Source: Carcharhinus longimanus (Eukaryota). From it: a stretch of 64,000 nucleotides of DNA. Shown piece by piece: positions 6,903-50,265 of the stretch. Numbering within the stretch: the stretch's first letter is position 1; each line of letters starts with the position of its first letter. A program made the position numbers and the translations under genes. The notes under the pieces are model-generated. The model saw nothing but the letters and a program-made list of their open reading frames with translations, made no database searches and had not been told where the DNA came from. Location: assembly GCA_030264375.1 (NCBI GenBank), contig JASCQW010000081.1, positions 13,001,993 to 13,065,992 on the forward strand, written 5' to 3'.

Positions 6903-8133
6903 TTTTATTCATTCATGGGACTTGGGCATTGCTGGTTGACCAGCAGTTACTGCCCATCTCTAAGTGCCCTTGAAGATCAGTTAAGAATCAAAAACATTGC
7001 TGTGGCTGTGGAGTCACATGTAGGCCAGAGCAGGTATGGATGGCAAATTTCATAGAAACTTGGAACATAGAAGATAGAAGCAGGAGGAATCCATTTGGCC
7101 CTTTAAGGCTGTTCTGCCATTCATTAAGATCATGGCTGATCATCCAACTTAATAGCCTAATCCTGCTTTTTCCCCATAACCTTTGATCCCATTCATCCCA
7201 AGTGCCATATCCAGCGTCTTGAATGCATTCAATGTTTTGTCATCAACTACTTCCTGTGGTAATGAATTCCACAGGCTCACCACTCCTTGGGTGAAGAAAT
7301 GTCTCCTCACCTCTGTCCTAAATGGTTTACCCTGAATCCTCAGGCCGTGTCCTCTGTTCTGGACTCCCTCGCCACTGGGAATATCCTCTCTGTATCTATC
7401 TTGTCTAATCCTGTTAGAATTTTATAAGTCTCTATGAGATCCCTCCTCATTCATCTGAACTCCAATGAAAACAATCCTAACGTAACCAATCTCTCCTCAT
7501 ACATCAGTTCGCCATCCCCAGAATCAGCCTGGTAAACCTTCGCTGCACTCCCTTGAGAGCAAGAACATCCTTCCTCAGAAAAGGAGACCAAAAATGCACA
7601 CAATACTCTAGGTGTGGCCTCATTAAGGCTCTGTATAATTGCAGCAATACATCCCTGCTCCTGTAGTTGAAACCCCTCACTATGAGGGCCAACACACCAC
7701 TTGCCTTCTTTACCACCTGCTGCACCTGCATGCTTACCTTCAGTGACTGGTGTACAAGGATACCCAGGTGCCCGCTGCACACTCCCTTCTCCCAATTTAC
7801 AGCTATTCAGGTAGTAATCTGCCTTTTTGTTTTTGCTTCCAAAATGAATAACCTCACATTTATCCAAATTATACTGCATCTGCCATTCATTTGCCCACTC
7901 ACCCAACCTGTCCAAATCATTCTGAAGGATTTCTGCATCCGCATCACAGTTCATCCTCCCACCCAACTTGGTATCATTTCCTTCCCTAAAGGACATTAGT
8001 GACCCAGATGGGTTTTTCCAACAATGGTTTCTTGGTCATCAGTAGGTTCTTAATTCCAGATATTTACACCATCTGCTGTGGTGGGATTAGAACCCAGGTC
8101 CCCAAAACATTAGCTGAGTTTCTGGACTAGCAG
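6903..8133 (-). mobile_element. Second tRNA-derived SINE family (…cccatgaatgaataaa tail), split by a CR1 insertion
   Basis: Halves 6903-7051 and 7976-8133 join into sequence homologous to the uninterrupted copies at 12280 and 53570. Confidence 0.75.
7052..7975 (-). mobile_element. 5'-truncated CR1 LINE (RT C-terminus + 3' UTR)
   Basis: DTKLGG..LQNDLDRLGEWANEWQMQYNLDKCEVIHFG and LYRALMRPHLEYCVHFWSP in frameshifted ORFs; flanked by atttc at 7047-7051 and 7976-7980. Confidence 0.92.
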
Positions 8134-8405
8134 TAAGAAGTCTCACAACACCAGGTCAAAGTCCGTCAGATTTATTTGGAATCACGAGCTTTCAGAGCAC
8201 TGCTCCTTCATCAGGTGAGTGGAGATTAGTTCCCAACATGACATATATAGGCAAAGACACAATTTCAAGATAATTACAAATAAGAATATGAAGAATGGTT
8301 GGAATGCGTGTCTTCACAGGTAATCAAGTCTTTACACGTATGAATAGTGTGCGTGGAGTGAGGGATAATCATAGGTTAAAGACATGTGAATTGTCTCAAG
8401 CCAGG
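8132..8405 (-). mobile_element. Penelope-like element 3' end/pLTR
   Basis: Reverse complement of 41830-42090, which follows a PLE ORF end. Confidence 0.8.
8183..8217 (-). ncRNA. Minimal type-I hammerhead ribozyme motif
   Basis: Minus strand CAC CUGAUGA A GGAGC AGU GCUCU GAAA GC UC GUG. Confidence 0.7.
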
Positions 8406-8491
8406 GTGGGGGGTGCAAACCATGCAGAGGTCCACTGACCTCAGGTGGGATTTTCCAGTTTTGGGGCAAGTGCGGCTGGAAAATCCTGCCC
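8405..8491. mobile_element. MITE-like element (truncated by the PLE)
   Basis: ggtgggattttccag...ctggaaaatcctgcc hairpin. Confidence 0.55.
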
Positions 8492-13054: not shown

Positions 13055-13527
13055 TCATAGAATCATAGAATCCTACAGTGTAGAAGGAGGCCATTCAGAC
13101 AATGGAACACAATCCCACCAGGTCCTCTCCCAATAACCCCATACATTTACCCCAGCTAGTCCCCCTGACACTTAAGGGCAATTTAGCACAACCAATCTAC
13201 CTAACCTGCACATCTTTGGACTGTGGGAGGAAACCAGAACACCCGGAGGAAACTCATGCAGACACCGGGAAAACACGCAAACTCCACACAGACAGTGACT
13301 GGAGATCAGGAATCGAACACANNNNNNNNNNNNNNNNNNNNNNNNNNNNNNNNNNNNNNNNNNNNNNNNNNNNNNNNNNNNNNNNNNNNNNNNNNNNNNN
13401 NNNNNNNNNNNNNNNNNNNNNTACTCCAGCTGCGGCCTCACCAATGCCCTATACAGTCGCAGCAAGACCTCCCTACTTTTATATTCAATCCCCCTCGCGA
13501 TGGCAGTGCTAACCGCTGTGCTGCCCA
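13055..13527 (-). mobile_element. HE1-like SINE, tail A, interrupted by a gap and a CR1 fragment (13423-13495)
   Basis: SINE body 13055-13320 and head 13500-13527; the intervening piece translates as ARGIEYKSREVLLRLYRALVRPQLE (CR1). Confidence 0.75.
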
Positions 13528-14479
13528 TTCTGGAGATTGTTGATCTGTGTTATTATTCCACTAAGTGCACAAAAAGTATTCATGTGCTGCATTATAGATC
13601 ACACACTGTTCGACCTATCATAAGCCCAGAATTTCCACTATAAACATTGATACTGATCATTATACTTTAGCGTTCTGTACTGTGGTCACATGTATTTCAA
13701 ATTCTAATGAGAAGTATCTTCCTCATGTCTACTACAATCTGTCCCTTCACACAATGCTGGCCAACACCAACTAACTGGTGTTTTTTTGACCATTCCACTT
13801 CTCACTTGGTGCCCCAGAGCTCTGTCTGCATTGTAGATTTCTGTATTGATCTTATAAACCAACTTAATTCTAATTAATCAACAGACAAGCTGCGGCACAC
13901 CAGTCATTATCTCTGGAAACTGCACAAACATCCCTTTTTAAAGGCAGTACCATTTTCCATTGTCGTTCCAGCAACTGAACTGATGATGTTTTGAATGTTT
14001 CAACATGATAAAGAATATTGTTCAATCTGCAACCAAACAGTCTGTGAGTGTGTCCTGTTCTACACACCGATTCATATTCACCCAAAGATGGCAATGAAAT
14101 GCAGAGAAATACATCAAAAACCCACTCAGTGGAGCCACCCTATGACCAGAGATTGCAACTGCATGGCAGCCGATATCAAATTGAATGGGAAATATATTGA
14201 GATAGCAATTTGCATGAGTAATTATTGAGAGGAAAACATAACTAAAAATTTTGACAACAGGATGGAAATTATGTGGGCAGGAAAATTGAGTCTCCAGTGT
14301 AAGATTTTATTGGGAAATAAGAGGAAATTTCAAAGAAATTTCAATTTTCCAGCAATGCAGTAACATTGGTTATATAGGTTTAAATATAAGTGAATTAGAT
14401 TCACTCATTTTAGGAAAGCAGCGTTGACTAGGGGTAGACTACTTTCCTCTTAACTTTATGTTGAATTCAGCACAAACAA

Positions 14480-15020: not shown

Positions 15021-15542
15021 GAATTATTGACTGCATTCTTGTGGAGCATTAACACTGGTACAAACCTATTGGACTGAATGGCTTGTTTTTCTGCTGTAAA
15101 ATTCACTATAAGTCCACATAAATCGTCACCTTGGTAACTGTACTAAGTACACAAGAAATCCCAATACTGTTCCCAAAGGAGATGGGCAAAATTGCCATTC
15201 TATTTCCCACATTTGCCCTTAATTTGATCTTTTTAGGACCACACATATAAACGGATTGGGAAATGAGAATAGGTCGAACATCATATTCATGAATGAAGGG
15301 TTATTATGTGAGATTTGATTTCAGGCACATTGTTGCCTCAATCAGGCCAGTGTGACATACGGTTAAGGAGTGTGTGAAGCAGATTATAAAGTAAAAGGTG
15401 CTCATTTTCACAGCACCCTCTCCCTGAATGGACATATAGTAATAAAACACTCATGTACAAATCGTTGATTTTTAATTTACTAAAGAACATAATTGATAGG
15501 AATGAGATTGGAGCAATCATGCTACCTAATTTGTCTCAGACA

Positions 15543-15696
15543 CAGTGAGTAGTCTCACAACACCAGGTTAAAGTCCAACAGGTTTATTTGGTAGCACGAG
15601 CTTTCAGAGCATTGCCCCTTCATCAGGTGAGTGACTCCCAGTGCTGTGAGACTACTTACTGTGCCCACCCCAGTCCAACGCCGGCAACTTCACATC
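15543..15696. mobile_element. 154-bp PLE-derived mini-element with a hammerhead motif on the minus strand (15594-15629)
   Basis: Inverted ends cagtgagtagtctcaca / tgtgagactacttactg; 12-bp TSD ttg(t/c)ctcagaca at 15531-15542 and 15697-15708; CAC CUGAUGA A GGGGC AAU GCUCU GAAA GC UC GUG. Confidence 0.8.
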
Positions 15697-15770: not shown

Positions 15771-15941
15771 TAAAGTTTAAAGTTTTAAAGTTTATTTATT
15801 AGTGTCACATGTAGGCTTACATCAACACTGTTATGCAATTATTGTGAAAATCCCCCAGTCGCCACACTCTGGCGCTTGTTCGGGTACACTGAAGGAGAAT
15901 TTAGCCTGGCCAACGCACCTAACCAGCTTGTCTTTCAGACT
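15771..15941 (-). mobile_element. HE1-like SINE tail B, 5'-truncated
   Basis: aaagtttatttattagtgtcacatgtaggc... Confidence 0.8.
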
Positions 15942-16928: not shown

Positions 16929-17395
16929 TTCAAGGAAAGGGTCAGCAGAGATGTGCAGGGGAAGTGGTGGGGGCCTGGAATGCACTGCCAAGTGAGGTGA
17001 TTGTGGCAGACAGGTTAGCGACATTCAAGACTTATCTGGGTAGGCACGTGAACAGAAAGAAATCCCACAGCACCAGCTTAAAGTCCAACAAGTTTGTTTG
17101 TAGCCAACGCCCCAAGCTTTCGGAACACATTGTTCCTTCATCAGGTGGCTGGGGAAAACGTGTTCCGAAAGCTTGTGGCATTTGCTACAAATAAACTCGT
17201 TGGACTTTAAGCTGGTGTTGTGGGATTTCTTTCTGCTTTACCCCAGTCCAATGCCGGCATCTCCACATCATAGGCACATGAACAGGCAGAGTATAGGGAG
17301 ATATAGGCAGTTGGTATAGATAGGACAATGCGATTGGTGCAGGCTTGGTGGGCCGAAGGGCTTGTTCCTACGCTGTACTGTTCTTTGGTCTTTGG
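16929..17395 (+). mobile_element. CR1 3' fragment hosting a PLE mini-element
   Basis: VVGAWNALPSEVIVADRLATFKTYLGRH peptide; ends gggccgaagggcttgttcctacgctgtactgttctttg. Confidence 0.8.
17056..17270. mobile_element. 215-bp palindromic PLE mini-element with a hammerhead motif (17113-17147, minus strand)
   Basis: 76-nt inverted arms at 17053-17128 and 17160-17235; 15-bp TSD taggcac(g/a)tgaacag at 17041-17055 and 17271-17285. Confidence 0.85.
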
Positions 17396-39726: not shown

Positions 39727-39863
39727 GGGGGGGGGGACGAGAAGTTTTCTTGCCTCACGCACCATGGGAATTGTAGCAGGCAGGGGGTGGACCATGCAAA
39801 GGTCTGATGACCTCAGGTGGGATTTTCTGGTCTTGGGGTGAATGCGGCCAGAAAATCCCACCC
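39727..39863. mobile_element. MITE-like element with terminal hairpin
   Basis: ggtgggattttctggtc / ggccagaaaatcccacc arms. Confidence 0.6.
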
Positions 39864-41138: not shown

Positions 41139-41433
41139 GGTGGCACAGTGGTTAGCACTGCTGCCTCACAGTGCCAGGGACATGGGTTCAATTCCTGGCT
41201 TGGGTCACTGTCTGTGTGGAGTTTGCACATTCTCCCCATGTTAGCATGGGTTTCCTCCAGGTGCTCTGATTTTATCCCACAGTCCAAAGATATGCTGGTT
41301 AGGTGCATTGGCCATGCTAATTTCTCCCTCAGTGTGCCCAAACAGGCACCAGAGTGTGGTGACTCGGGGATTTTCATAGTAACTTTGTTTCAGTGTTAAT
41401 GTAAGCCTACTTGTGACACTAATAAATAAACTC
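41139..41433 (+). mobile_element. HE1-like SINE, tail B
   Basis: Head, core and gcctacttgtgacactaataaataaac tail. Confidence 0.9.
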
Positions 41434-41704: not shown

Positions 41705-42122
41705 GACAGTTAGTGAAACTGGTAGCCAAGTTCCACACACGTGAGGACGGCCTTAACCGGGATCTTGGGTCCATGTCACACTATCTGTAACCTCCACAAC
41801 TTGCCTGAGCTTGCAAAATCTCACTAACTGTCCTGGCTAGAGACAATACATAATCTTTTTAACTTGTACTTAACCCTGTCTCCACTGACATTGTCTGTAT
41901 CTTTAAGACTTGATTACCTGTAAAGACTTGCATTCTAACTATTATCTTGTAAATTGAGTTTGATTCTTTATATGCCCTGTTTGTGAACACAACTCCCTCT
42001 CACCTGATGAAGGGGCAGTGCTCCGAAAGCTTGTGCTATCAAATAAACCTGTTGGACTTTAACCTGGTGTTGTGAGACTTCTTACTGTGCTTATCCAGTC
42101 CAACACCAGCATCTCCACATCA
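41705..42122 (+). mobile_element. Penelope-like retroelement 3' end: GIY-YIG domain C-terminus + pLTR
   Basis: 41713-41790 translates VKLVAKFHTREDGLNRDLGSMSHYL* (PLE GLN motif); inverted junction gacagttagtga / tcactaactgtc. Confidence 0.85.
42001..42035 (+). ncRNA. Minimal type-I hammerhead ribozyme motif
   Basis: CAC CUGAUGA A GGGGC AGU GCUCC GAAA GC UU GUG. Confidence 0.75.
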
Positions 42123-46659: not shown

Positions 46660-48140
46660 ATCTATGCAAGGTTGGAAGTTTCTGCTATTAGTCTTGATGT
46701 GGATGAACAGATTGATTCCCGATAAATGGAGCAGGATGTCCCATGAGGAAATGGGATCCAGAGTGCAGGATTTGCTTCCTTTTCTTTCCTTCTGCCTCTG
46801 TCATTATTAAGACATTGGGATTCAAAGCGTGATGCAGCTTGATGGACAAGTTGTTGCCATTCTGAGTGACTAGCAGCAAACATCTCCTGGTTATTCAGGT
46901 TAATGCTGCTGAACTTCAAGAAGAATTTGAGTATCTTTGTCCTCCCATTGAACATTGGTTATTTGAAAATGGGGAGAACAGTATTTGGCATGGGAGATGG
47001 GGTTTCAGTCTTCTAAACACAGTGACCAGTCCATTGAAGTTCATTTTGCAGCTTTGCCTGAACGCTCAAGGAGTTGGCTTCAAGAAGGACATTGACATTT
47101 GTTCAATGGTCTTCCCAGTGAAGTGGAGATGCCGGCATAGGACTGGGGTAAACACAGTAAGAAGTCTCACAACACCAGGTTAAAGTCCAACAGGTTTATT
47201 TTGTAGCAAAAGCCACTAGACTTCCTCCCATTGAATCCAGAGGAATCAATGAACCTTTCTCTGGCACTTGTGTGCGACTGACACACAGTCCAGATCTCAC
47301 TGTAATATAGGAGTGTGGTGATGGCTATCATTTTGTACACACTGATTCCTGTTGGCTTGAGGAGGTCTTTGGTGTCAAACACCCATGACTGTAGTTTGTC
47401 AAAGGCTGAGCTGGTGCAACTAATCAGGTATTGGGTTTTTTTGTCAACTGTGACCTTTTGAGAATGGGCAGCTGCCGAGGTATGGGGAGCTCTCAGTATA
47501 TTAGAGTCTTTCCTTCAACATATACAGGTGGTGGAATATTTGACTGGCTAGTTTGGGCTGATGTGCAAGTTTTGTTTTGGTGGCATACAAGGACAGGGTG
47601 AGTTATTATCTGCAGAATTGAAGAGATCAAGAATGGTTTGCAAATCCAGTGCAGAGTGGGCAATGACACTGCAGTCATCTGCACAATGGGAATAATGTAC
47701 ATGTGTGGTGGACTATATAGTTTTGGCACTGAGGCAACTGAGATTAAAATGTTTTTCATTAATTGGTAGTTAATACTGACACCAGAAGGTAGTTGTTCTT
47801 TGAGGTGATTAGCTACCGTCGGGGTTAATTGTAAATGATATGGGAGCTAATATACAGCCTCACTTGGCCCCAGATTGGATTTTGAAGGCCTCTGTTTCAG
47901 ATCTCCCATTCCAGCCAATTGCAGATATATCATCATGAAGCTGTTGCAGGATTGTAATCATTTTCTTGGGTGTCCAGATTTTTGGAGAACAATTCACTGA
48001 GCTTTGCGATTGAGTCAGACATTTTGGTTGGCCAAAGACCGCAATGGTGTTGGCCTTGACATTATTGGATTTATCTGAGAACTAGGACCGTGTAAGTGGT
48101 TCTTCTGGAGGGTTTAAAGCAACATTGTCTTTGGGAGTGT
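46660..48140 (-). mobile_element. RTE-clade LINE 3' part, degenerate
   Basis: VFDTKDLLKPTGISVYKMIAITTLLYYSEIWT and ASHSEWQQLVHQAASRFES resemble the RTE ORF C-terminus; interrupted by a PLE terminus at 47153-47220. Confidence 0.75.
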
Positions 48141-49869: not shown

Positions 49870-50265
49870 TGACTGGAATGTTCCTGTCTCGCCCATCATG
49901 GGAATCATACCAGGTGGTGGTGGTGCGTATCATACAAAGGTCCATTGACTTTGGGTGGGATTTTCCACCTTAAAGCTTTAAATTAAGGGGTGGTAGTTAT
50001 AGGACGGATGTCAGGGGTAGGTTCTTTACCCAGAGGGTGGTGAGGGATTGNNNNNNNNNNNNNNNNNNNNNNNNNNNNNNNNNNNNNNNNNNNNNNNNNN
50101 NNNNNNNNNNNNNNNNNNNNNNNNNNNNNNNNNNNNNNNNNNNNNNNNNNTTAGAGGGTCATTGCTTTTTAACTGGTCGGCGCAACATCGTGGGCCGAAG
50201 GGCCTGTTCTGCGCTGTAATGTTCTACGTTCTAAAGAGGCAAGCGTGGCTGGAAAATTCCACCCC
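49870..50265. mobile_element. Hairpin MITE interrupted by a CR1 3' fragment (49969-50233)
   Basis: gggtgggattttcc arm before the insert and ggaaaattccacccc arm after it. Confidence 0.6.

Follow-up and report, generated by a model that had tools for sequence, protein, structure and literature searches.

Minimal type I hammerhead ribozyme motifs in the pseudo-LTR of an abundant, decayed Neptune-like Penelope-like retroelement of a shark

The window analysed here is a stretch of 64,000 nucleotides of the genome of the shark Carcharhinus longimanus (contig JASCQW010000081.1, positions 13,001,993 to 13,065,992, forward strand). It contains four hammerhead motifs, whose coordinates and strands, proposed in an earlier note made from the letters alone, were confirmed (Table 1). 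Every part that had been described is present in all four copies, namely CAC, CUGAUGA, an extra A, the quoted variant of stem II, GAAA, the palindrome AGCU and a final U or C, and the helix I reported as imperfect in the 17.1 kb copy is indeed so, its 3' strand reading GGG after a change of U1.2 to G. The 42 kb hammerhead, in which residue numbers follow the established hammerhead numbering, begins 210 nt behind the stop codon of a Penelope-like element (PLE) ORF, as the same note had stated.

Table 1. Features of the PLE copies and their hammerheads in the window.
Feature	Position	Strand	Remarks
Penelope ORF, C-terminal end (endonuclease region), 5'-truncated	41714..41790	+	stop TAA 41788-41790
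3' UTR / pseudo-LTR, 5' of the 42 kb ribozyme	41791..42000	+	
TATA-like box of the 42 kb copy	41967-41974	+	37 nt before C3; putative promoter
42 kb minimal type I hammerhead	42001..42035	+	core and G10.1-C11.1 intact
42 kb helix I	42001-42003 (5' strand), 42033-42035 (3' strand)	+	
42 kb catalytic core	42004-42010	+	
42 kb extra A	42011	+	
42 kb stem II	42012-42024	+	
42 kb GAAA	42025-42028	+	
42 kb palindrome AGCU	42028-42031	+	
42 kb N17	42032	+	U; predicted cut 42032/42033
Conserved segment 3' of the 42 kb ribozyme	42036..42121	+	first end cluster ~42088-42093; ~33-nt tail to 42121
Second copy, 5'-truncated pseudo-LTR without tail	8123..8408	-	hammerhead 8183-8217
Third copy, head-to-head insertion, arm without tail	15538..15634	-	hammerhead 15594-15629
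Tail-bearing inverted partner arm of the third copy	15640..15696	+	truncated behind the ribozyme
Fourth copy, tail-less arm	17047..17165	-	hammerhead 17113-17147
Tail-bearing inverted partner arm of the fourth copy	17160..17269	+	starts inside stem II
Further 5'-truncated tail-bearing copy	47121..47224	-	without the 5' half of the ribozyme

The 8.2 kb hammerhead has a G10.1-U11.1 pair that arose by CpG decay and a C at N17. The third copy starts 8-9 nt upstream of C3 and forms with its partner arm a head-to-head unit flanked by a 12-bp target-site duplication with one mismatch. The fourth copy belongs to a subfamily whose stem II has 6 bp and whose helix I (GCCAC/GUGGC) has 5 bp; U1.2 is mutated in this arm, the partner arm retains an intact GUGGC strand, and the head-to-head unit is flanked by a 15-bp duplication, again with one mismatch. 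The fold predicted for this pair of arms is one long hairpin of about 100 paired bases, in which the ribozyme would be buried. Two of the four window copies keep G10.1-C11.1, and in the other two it has become G-U by CpG decay. Owing to this loss and to the predicted hairpin, it is likely that none of the four hammerheads has a role at present.

Other repeats lie in the same window. The open frames at 7451-8035 and 13172-13549, both on the minus strand, look to us like decayed fragments of a CR1-type LINE reverse transcriptase, and the first of them is about 90 nt from the 8.2 kb copy. Copies of a common repeat, presumably of the short interspersed class with a tRNA-like head, occur at 41139-41430 (+) and 15800-15925 (-). 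Another short dispersed repeat is found at 8409-8476, 39783-39848 and 49919-49967, always on the minus strand, and the first of these abuts the 8.2 kb copy at that copy's 5' end.

The hammerheads sit in the pseudo-LTR of a Neptune-like PLE that is very common in this shark. The final residues of the ORF of the 42 kb copy are identical at 19 of 24 positions to the C-terminus of a shark protein of the RT/GIY-YIG type (P0003), and longer genomic copies extend into a reverse transcriptase (RT; Pfam RVT_1, E-value 1.9e-06, just below the curated cut-off). The best named relatives of this RT are shark proteins from Scyliorhinus, Heptranchias, Mustelus and Chiloscyllium with 74-84% identity, followed by those of turtles, frogs and invertebrates, which agrees with the shark host that had been claimed. 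Relatives annotated as GIY-YIG occur in turtles, and a Pfam score for the GIY-YIG domain was obtained only for P0030, a relative from a turtle, and for none of the shark fragments. Both the shark relatives and the copies of the C. longimanus genome possess two cysteines between the endonuclease's VVY and YIG motifs and a C-x4-C-x2-C motif within the linker that joins RT and endonuclease. The two cysteines are a mark of PLE endonucleases, and a zinc-finger-like CX2-5CxxC linker is a mark of Neptune and Nematis, according to passages of PMC8557442. The linker motif is common to both groups; Neptune is the likelier assignment on these sequences, since a vertebrate survey reported Neptune and Poseidon and did not find Nematis. 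The succession of an RT and a GIY-YIG endonuclease with two cysteines, the inverted 5'-truncated pseudo-LTR (pLTR), the tail on one side and the target-site duplication are features of endonuclease-bearing (EN+) PLEs that the shark element displays. The pseudo-LTR position and the RT and endonuclease relatives thus support the previous identification of the motifs as PLE minimal type I hammerheads.

All the copies of the element that we have seen are decayed. In 20 RT-bearing loci of 10 kb, many with runs of N, we found neither an intact ORF with both pLTRs nor a partial-tandem full-length element with two direct pLTRs; candidate long open frames were dismissed, most of them running through N. 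The ATG within the ribozyme core, as read from the sequence, opens only a short frame. In six loci (L033, L044, L060, L064, L081 and L091) the copies continue beyond the tail for a few bases and reach another ATG, as do loose ends in the contig sets of other organisms described below, and this ATG may be the ORF start of the element.

The motif is far more frequent than expected. The pattern CTGATGA-N8-30-GAAA has eight matches in the window against 1.88 ± 1.50 in shuffled sequences, none of 100 shuffles reaching eight, and the four matches besides the hammerheads have no family flanks. Genome-wide, a strict hammerhead pattern gave 7,421 matches versus 0 for the reversed control, and a relaxed exact core 37,640 versus 55, so that the abundance of ribozyme-bearing PLEs suggested earlier for this shark is well founded. 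Forty stretches of large contigs, taken at round coordinates and amounting to 345,480 bases when N is left out, contain 20 ribozyme-spanning segments, from which approximately 155,000 copies are extrapolated (95% Poisson range 93,000-225,000). A scan of the window against Rfam at E≤5 returned 12 weak matches and no hammerhead; the best one, mir-3145 (33.9 bits versus 98), corresponds to the inverted repeat at 17.1 kb. A motif devoid of helix III may escape the Rfam hammerhead models.

The covariation that had been claimed among the four window copies is weak evidence by itself. The GGAACA/UGUUCC stem of the 17.1 kb copy is a compensatory double change, the only one; the remaining differences are weak, the GCUCU variant being a C to U change at 11.1 by CpG decay and the step from GGAGC to GGGGC a real subfamily difference that consists of a one-sided change of A-U to G-U. 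Across the genome, covariation between subfamilies is real, and this comparison supplies the proper evidence. At the pair 10.4-11.4, the whole-genome counts are 6,232 G-C, 2,481 A-U, 481 G-U and 625 A-C (odds ratio 51; 89% Watson-Crick pairs versus 57% if the two positions were independent), these being counts of copies and not of independent events, and the off-diagonal classes amount to 8-10% of the main class, approximately the level of decay. When the C was restored at 11.1, nine of the 12 types of 4-bp stem II that recur at least three times (205 of 261 copies) were fully paired, the other three being single G-to-A steps from common types. Mutual information for 10.2-10.5 is highest between partners, along the paired diagonal (13 of 248 parsed matches were dropped as mis-parsed or missing a flank). 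In 30 diverse copies, picked by hand and mostly from pattern matches, five of nine pairs change on both sides, including a C-G/G-C swap, and 90% of the cells pair as compared with 20-52% in slid controls. A tree of 77 copies built on the flanks only recovered some subfamilies and was not strong enough for independent double changes to be counted.

Helix I is less variable: three of its pairs are nearly invariant and the fourth is U-A, U-G or C-G, or unpaired in 8 of 29 copies; in the GCCAC subfamily the helix has 5 bp, pairs that the search pattern itself required. The differences between subfamilies within the core fall on N7 (U, C or A) and N17 (U, A or C), which are tolerated positions, and the subfamily majorities retain every one of the 11 catalytic core positions. 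A separate observation concerns a block of 7 nt that follows immediately on the cut site and differs between subfamilies (window 42029-42045 versus loci L009, L017, L022 and L025); it looks like a tandem duplication or a slippage deletion and alters the fourth pair of helix I.

Decay within copies was followed in 85 copies from loci that had not been chosen by the ribozyme pattern, 51 of 136 aligned matches having been dropped because they did not span the ribozyme and its flank. The dinucleotide 11.1-G12 reads CG in 38 copies, TG in 27, CA in 13 and otherwise in 7; the CA form destroys the catalytic G12, which is lost in 17 of the 85. All 11 core letters together with an N17 other than G are retained in 47 copies, and N17 is G in two. 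The extra nucleotide 9a is A in 83 of 85 copies, G15.2 is found in 79 of 83 and C16.2 in 76 of 85. Apart from CpG sites, 27 of 761 core cells are changed versus 235 of 3,746 in the flanks, a figure that includes subfamily differences, and the base-matched expectation for the core is 38 (p about 0.04). Decay after insertion is therefore near neutral, not proven neutral, with the core somewhat less changed than the flanks. The structure-preserving changes between subfamilies and the decay within copies support, as an inference, the selection on structure in master elements that had been put forward: the RNA fold would have been under purifying selection as long as the masters were mobile, followed by near-neutral decay.

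The insertions have a regular anatomy. Their 3' ends group at two places, about +60 to +67 and about +92 to +97 from N17, and the difference corresponds to the tail. Pairs of copies within 400 nt comprise 72 head-to-head, seven direct and one tail-to-tail arrangements. Exactly one arm is tailed in 74 of the 80 pairs within 3.6 kb that could be scored (50% would be expected; 12 of 92 head-to-head pairs have an end that cannot be scored) and in all ten pairs of the unbiased set. Duplications, mostly of 12-14 bp, flank 29 of 66 pairs, both window pairs included, versus none of 65 displaced controls. The two arms overlap in element coordinates by 18-419 nt in each of the 72 close pairs; the longer arm is the tail-less one in 22 cases and the tailed one in 18, the arms are within 10 nt of each other in 14, and five extend beyond the model. 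Some arm junctions are short fold-backs. Most copies measure 60-140 nt and have a common place of start.

Arms of one pair mostly share a subfamily, and clearly discordant arms were found in three of 40 aligned one-tail pairs (L055, L164 and L167). The arms of these three abut, without a detectable duplication, and they may be separate insertions into an existing copy. A head-to-head insertion at L159:5180-5448 (near 29,644,300) has a perfect 11-bp duplication and arms that differ in stem II and the 3' flank, matching two recurrent variants, and it is a candidate for an event with two templates, although decay could explain the differences between its arms. No head-to-tail arrays of hammerhead units were present in the fetched loci. 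At L203:5079-5354 (near 117,934,100), two identical direct hammerheads stand 175 nt apart with a run of N between them, which may reflect an overlap of the assembly rather than a tandem.

It had been suggested that 5' ends would map just 5' of GUG, and this found no support in the DNA, where insertions have neither their start nor their end at the cut site. None of the 30 5' ends of the unbiased set is located there, and in the overall set of 285 distinct 5' ends, which is biased towards the upstream cluster by the pattern selection, four are found within -2 to +3 of the cut and none at +1. The ends accumulate instead just upstream of helix I: 13 of the 30 unbiased ends are at -50 to -31, where the stop rate reaches 0.046 per nt versus 0.005 and 0.003 on either side, about nine times the downstream rate. 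The cluster most likely marks the start of the RNA, a structural stop or a fold-back being the alternatives. A TATA-like box precedes C3 by 35-40 nt in 39 of 75 long copies; its absence from the GCCAC subfamily, which has the same 5' cluster, and from 33 of the 75 long copies, where no match was found, weakens this reading. Because a pyrimidine tract and CAG occur upstream of the 5' cluster in several subfamilies, a spliced leader was considered; inspection by eye of the short copies revealed no common upstream exon. The family was also found in four sets of putative-RNA contigs from four organisms, with loose ends at 41999, 42084-42093 and 42122, which cannot show starts, strand or level and may mirror genomic copies.

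Helix III of a master hammerhead would be completed only by the pairing of two AGCU palindromes. The intermolecular helix is calculated at 4 bp and -3.9 kcal/mol, or at 6 bp and -6.5 kcal/mol when N17 is U, and stem II is incomplete in the minimum-energy folds predicted for two of the four window monomers. Since so weak a helix is predicted, cleavage in the masters was likely slow or protein-assisted, which would match reports on other PLE hammerheads (PMC4209133, PMC11167929, both in part): the minimal hammerheads of PLEs show poor cleavage in vitro, multimers included (PMC4209133, in part), eight of nine Xenopus dimer elements did not cut, and the ribozyme of an Anolis element is protein-assisted (Frangieh et al. 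2024, PMC11167929, in part). The copies keep the junction and end well behind the cut, and for this reason the templates were likely uncut RNA. The lack of 5' ends at the cut, the prevalence of head-to-head insertions and the rule of a single tail likewise make uncut templates probable.

Taken together, our results very probably describe minimal type I hammerheads that lie in the pseudo-LTR of a Neptune-like shark PLE, abundant and now decayed, whose masters likely folded and cut weakly after N17 only as dimers paired through AGCU, possibly with the assistance of a protein, and whose genomic copies likely derive from uncut RNA. In the mechanism that we propose, the element protein would nick both DNA strands, with one priming per strand, and reverse transcription would be primed at two sites behind the ribozyme, yielding two arms that overlap and meet head to head. 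The presence of a single tail is consistent with two such primings, one per nicked strand, at two start sites, by analogy with those observed in vitro for the Anolis element. Most cDNAs would end a few bases past helix I, and that the RNA starts there is the most likely reason, to which we give about an even chance. Cleavage, if any, would act on other RNA molecules or at another stage, the integrating ends not being made by cutting.

Several other explanations have to be weighed. That the likeness to hammerheads is fortuitous and the pairing a product of transition bias is hardly credible, and we reject it: three of the four window stem variants do differ only by transitions giving G-U, and Rfam is without a match, but such a bias accounts neither for double changes at five pairs, one of them the C-G/G-C swap, nor for the association at 10.4-11.4 or the genome-wide excess of the core over the control, and the pseudo-LTR is a position known for PLE hammerheads. 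We also disfavour, as very improbable, the view that the short copies are an independent non-autonomous family, retrozyme or SINE-like, rather than stumps of the PLE. Their size and common start would suit such a family, and tandem hammerhead retrozymes have been reported in one chondrichthyan (bioRxiv 10.64898/2026.07.22.740005, in part); however, the short copies have the same sequence and subfamily marks as the long ones, with a gradual transition to copies that bear the ORF, both kinds of arm occur in the same insertions, and no tandem arrays were seen, the one 175-nt direct pair spanning a run of N.

Two further readings concern what the ribozyme does. Cervera and De la Peña (2014; PMC4209133, in part) proposed that it cuts a precursor into monomers or circles serving as templates, and re-ligation would restore the junction, so that the copies look uncut. 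The intact junction of every full copy is also expected from such a circle and the model is already published, yet we judge it improbable for the shark element given the lack of any excess of ends at the cut and the rarity of close direct tandems (seven versus 72 head-to-head), and a circle would leave the stops just upstream of helix I unexplained. It is unlikely, too, that the fold was kept for a non-catalytic role, as a protein-binding or RNA-pairing signal uniting two templates for double priming, with cleavage vestigial or incidental. The copies derived from uncut RNA speak for such a role, as do the arms, which always overlap and of which either may be the longer, a pattern fitting two primings better than one snap-back, and mutants of the ribozyme leave insertion in vitro unaffected (PMC11167929, in part). 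A mere pairing signal would not need the 11 core positions kept in the subfamily majorities or an N17 that avoids G, and most arm pairs share a subfamily, the three discordant ones lacking a duplication and perhaps being separate insertions. A more specific proposal, which we regard as speculative and improbable, is that the AGCU palindrome is an RNA dimerisation signal: two uncut RNAs would be held in one dimeric protein complex, each nick would prime one RNA at its own start site, giving a head-to-head insertion with exactly one tail, and the 5' pile-up before helix I would be the RNA start. If this were true, the hammerhead fold would organise integration rather than make the ends of the template.

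At the level of sequence, the shark motifs agree in every feature with the 2014 description of minimal PLE hammerheads: the CUGANGA and GAAA-N-N-U-H boxes in all four window copies, a helix II with G10.1-C11.1 and covariation, an open helix I, the nucleotide 9a and a palindrome at 15.1-16.1 in place of helix III. The likeness to that description (PMC4209133, in part) extends to the pseudo-LTR position, the extra nucleotide between 9 and 10.1, the palindromic 15.2-16.2 and the short helix I, as well as to the many subfamilies with compensatory changes, the mostly single truncated copies and some close pairs on opposite strands. The numbers differ, with 37,640 exact cores in the shark versus about 4,000 in the coelacanth and about 9,000 in Xenopus, obtained by different search methods, and a stem II of 4-6 bp versus 7-8 bp in Schistosoma (PMC4209133, in part). 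The Poseidon element PAc of Anolis carolinensis likewise has its hammerhead upstream of two RT start sites, by which a tail is defined, and inserts from unprocessed RNA with both DNA strands cut and extended; it differs in that its ORF begins inside the ribozyme, where the shark core ATG opens only a short frame (PMC11167929, in part), and in that the shark element has the Neptune/Nematis linker motif. Units of EN+ PLEs share the inverted 5'-truncated head-to-head arm, the target-site duplications, here mostly of 12-14 bp versus 8-10, and a tail of 30-40 bp at one end only, and the pLTR of Pen2a has a TATA and an initiator-like sequence, resembling the TATA-like box of the shark pseudo-LTR (PMC8557442, PMC3846280, both in part). 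The passages concerned describe this layout without counts; for the shark, a single tail is counted in 74 of 80 pairs, along with a sharp cluster of 5' ends at the edge of the ribozyme. The non-LTR retrozymes of Li et al. (2026, bioRxiv 10.64898/2026.07.22.740005, in part) have type I hammerheads derived from PLE pLTRs, in one chondrichthyan genome, and form head-to-tail arrays, whereas the window copies are solo or head-to-head and close direct pairs are few.

Sharks are not named among the PLE hammerhead hosts in the passages of the 2014 description (PMC4209133), and our search found no publication on shark PLE hammerheads, although the supplements of bioRxiv 10.64898/2026.07.22.740005 and PMC4209133 may list the family. 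The ribozyme class has been known since 2014 (PMC4209133), and the shark family is a new member of it with a high copy number. The function of PLE hammerheads and the origin of head-to-head insertions are open questions (PMC8557442, PMC11167929, both in part), and a family of the order of 100,000 copies allows both to be tested by counting. The counts obtained so far indicate that insertions avoid the cut site, have a single end site for each arm and terminate at the upstream edge of the ribozyme. The series of subfamilies, with a stem II of 4-6 bp, a helix I of 3-5 bp and U, C or A at N17, provides ready variants for assays of dimer cleavage.
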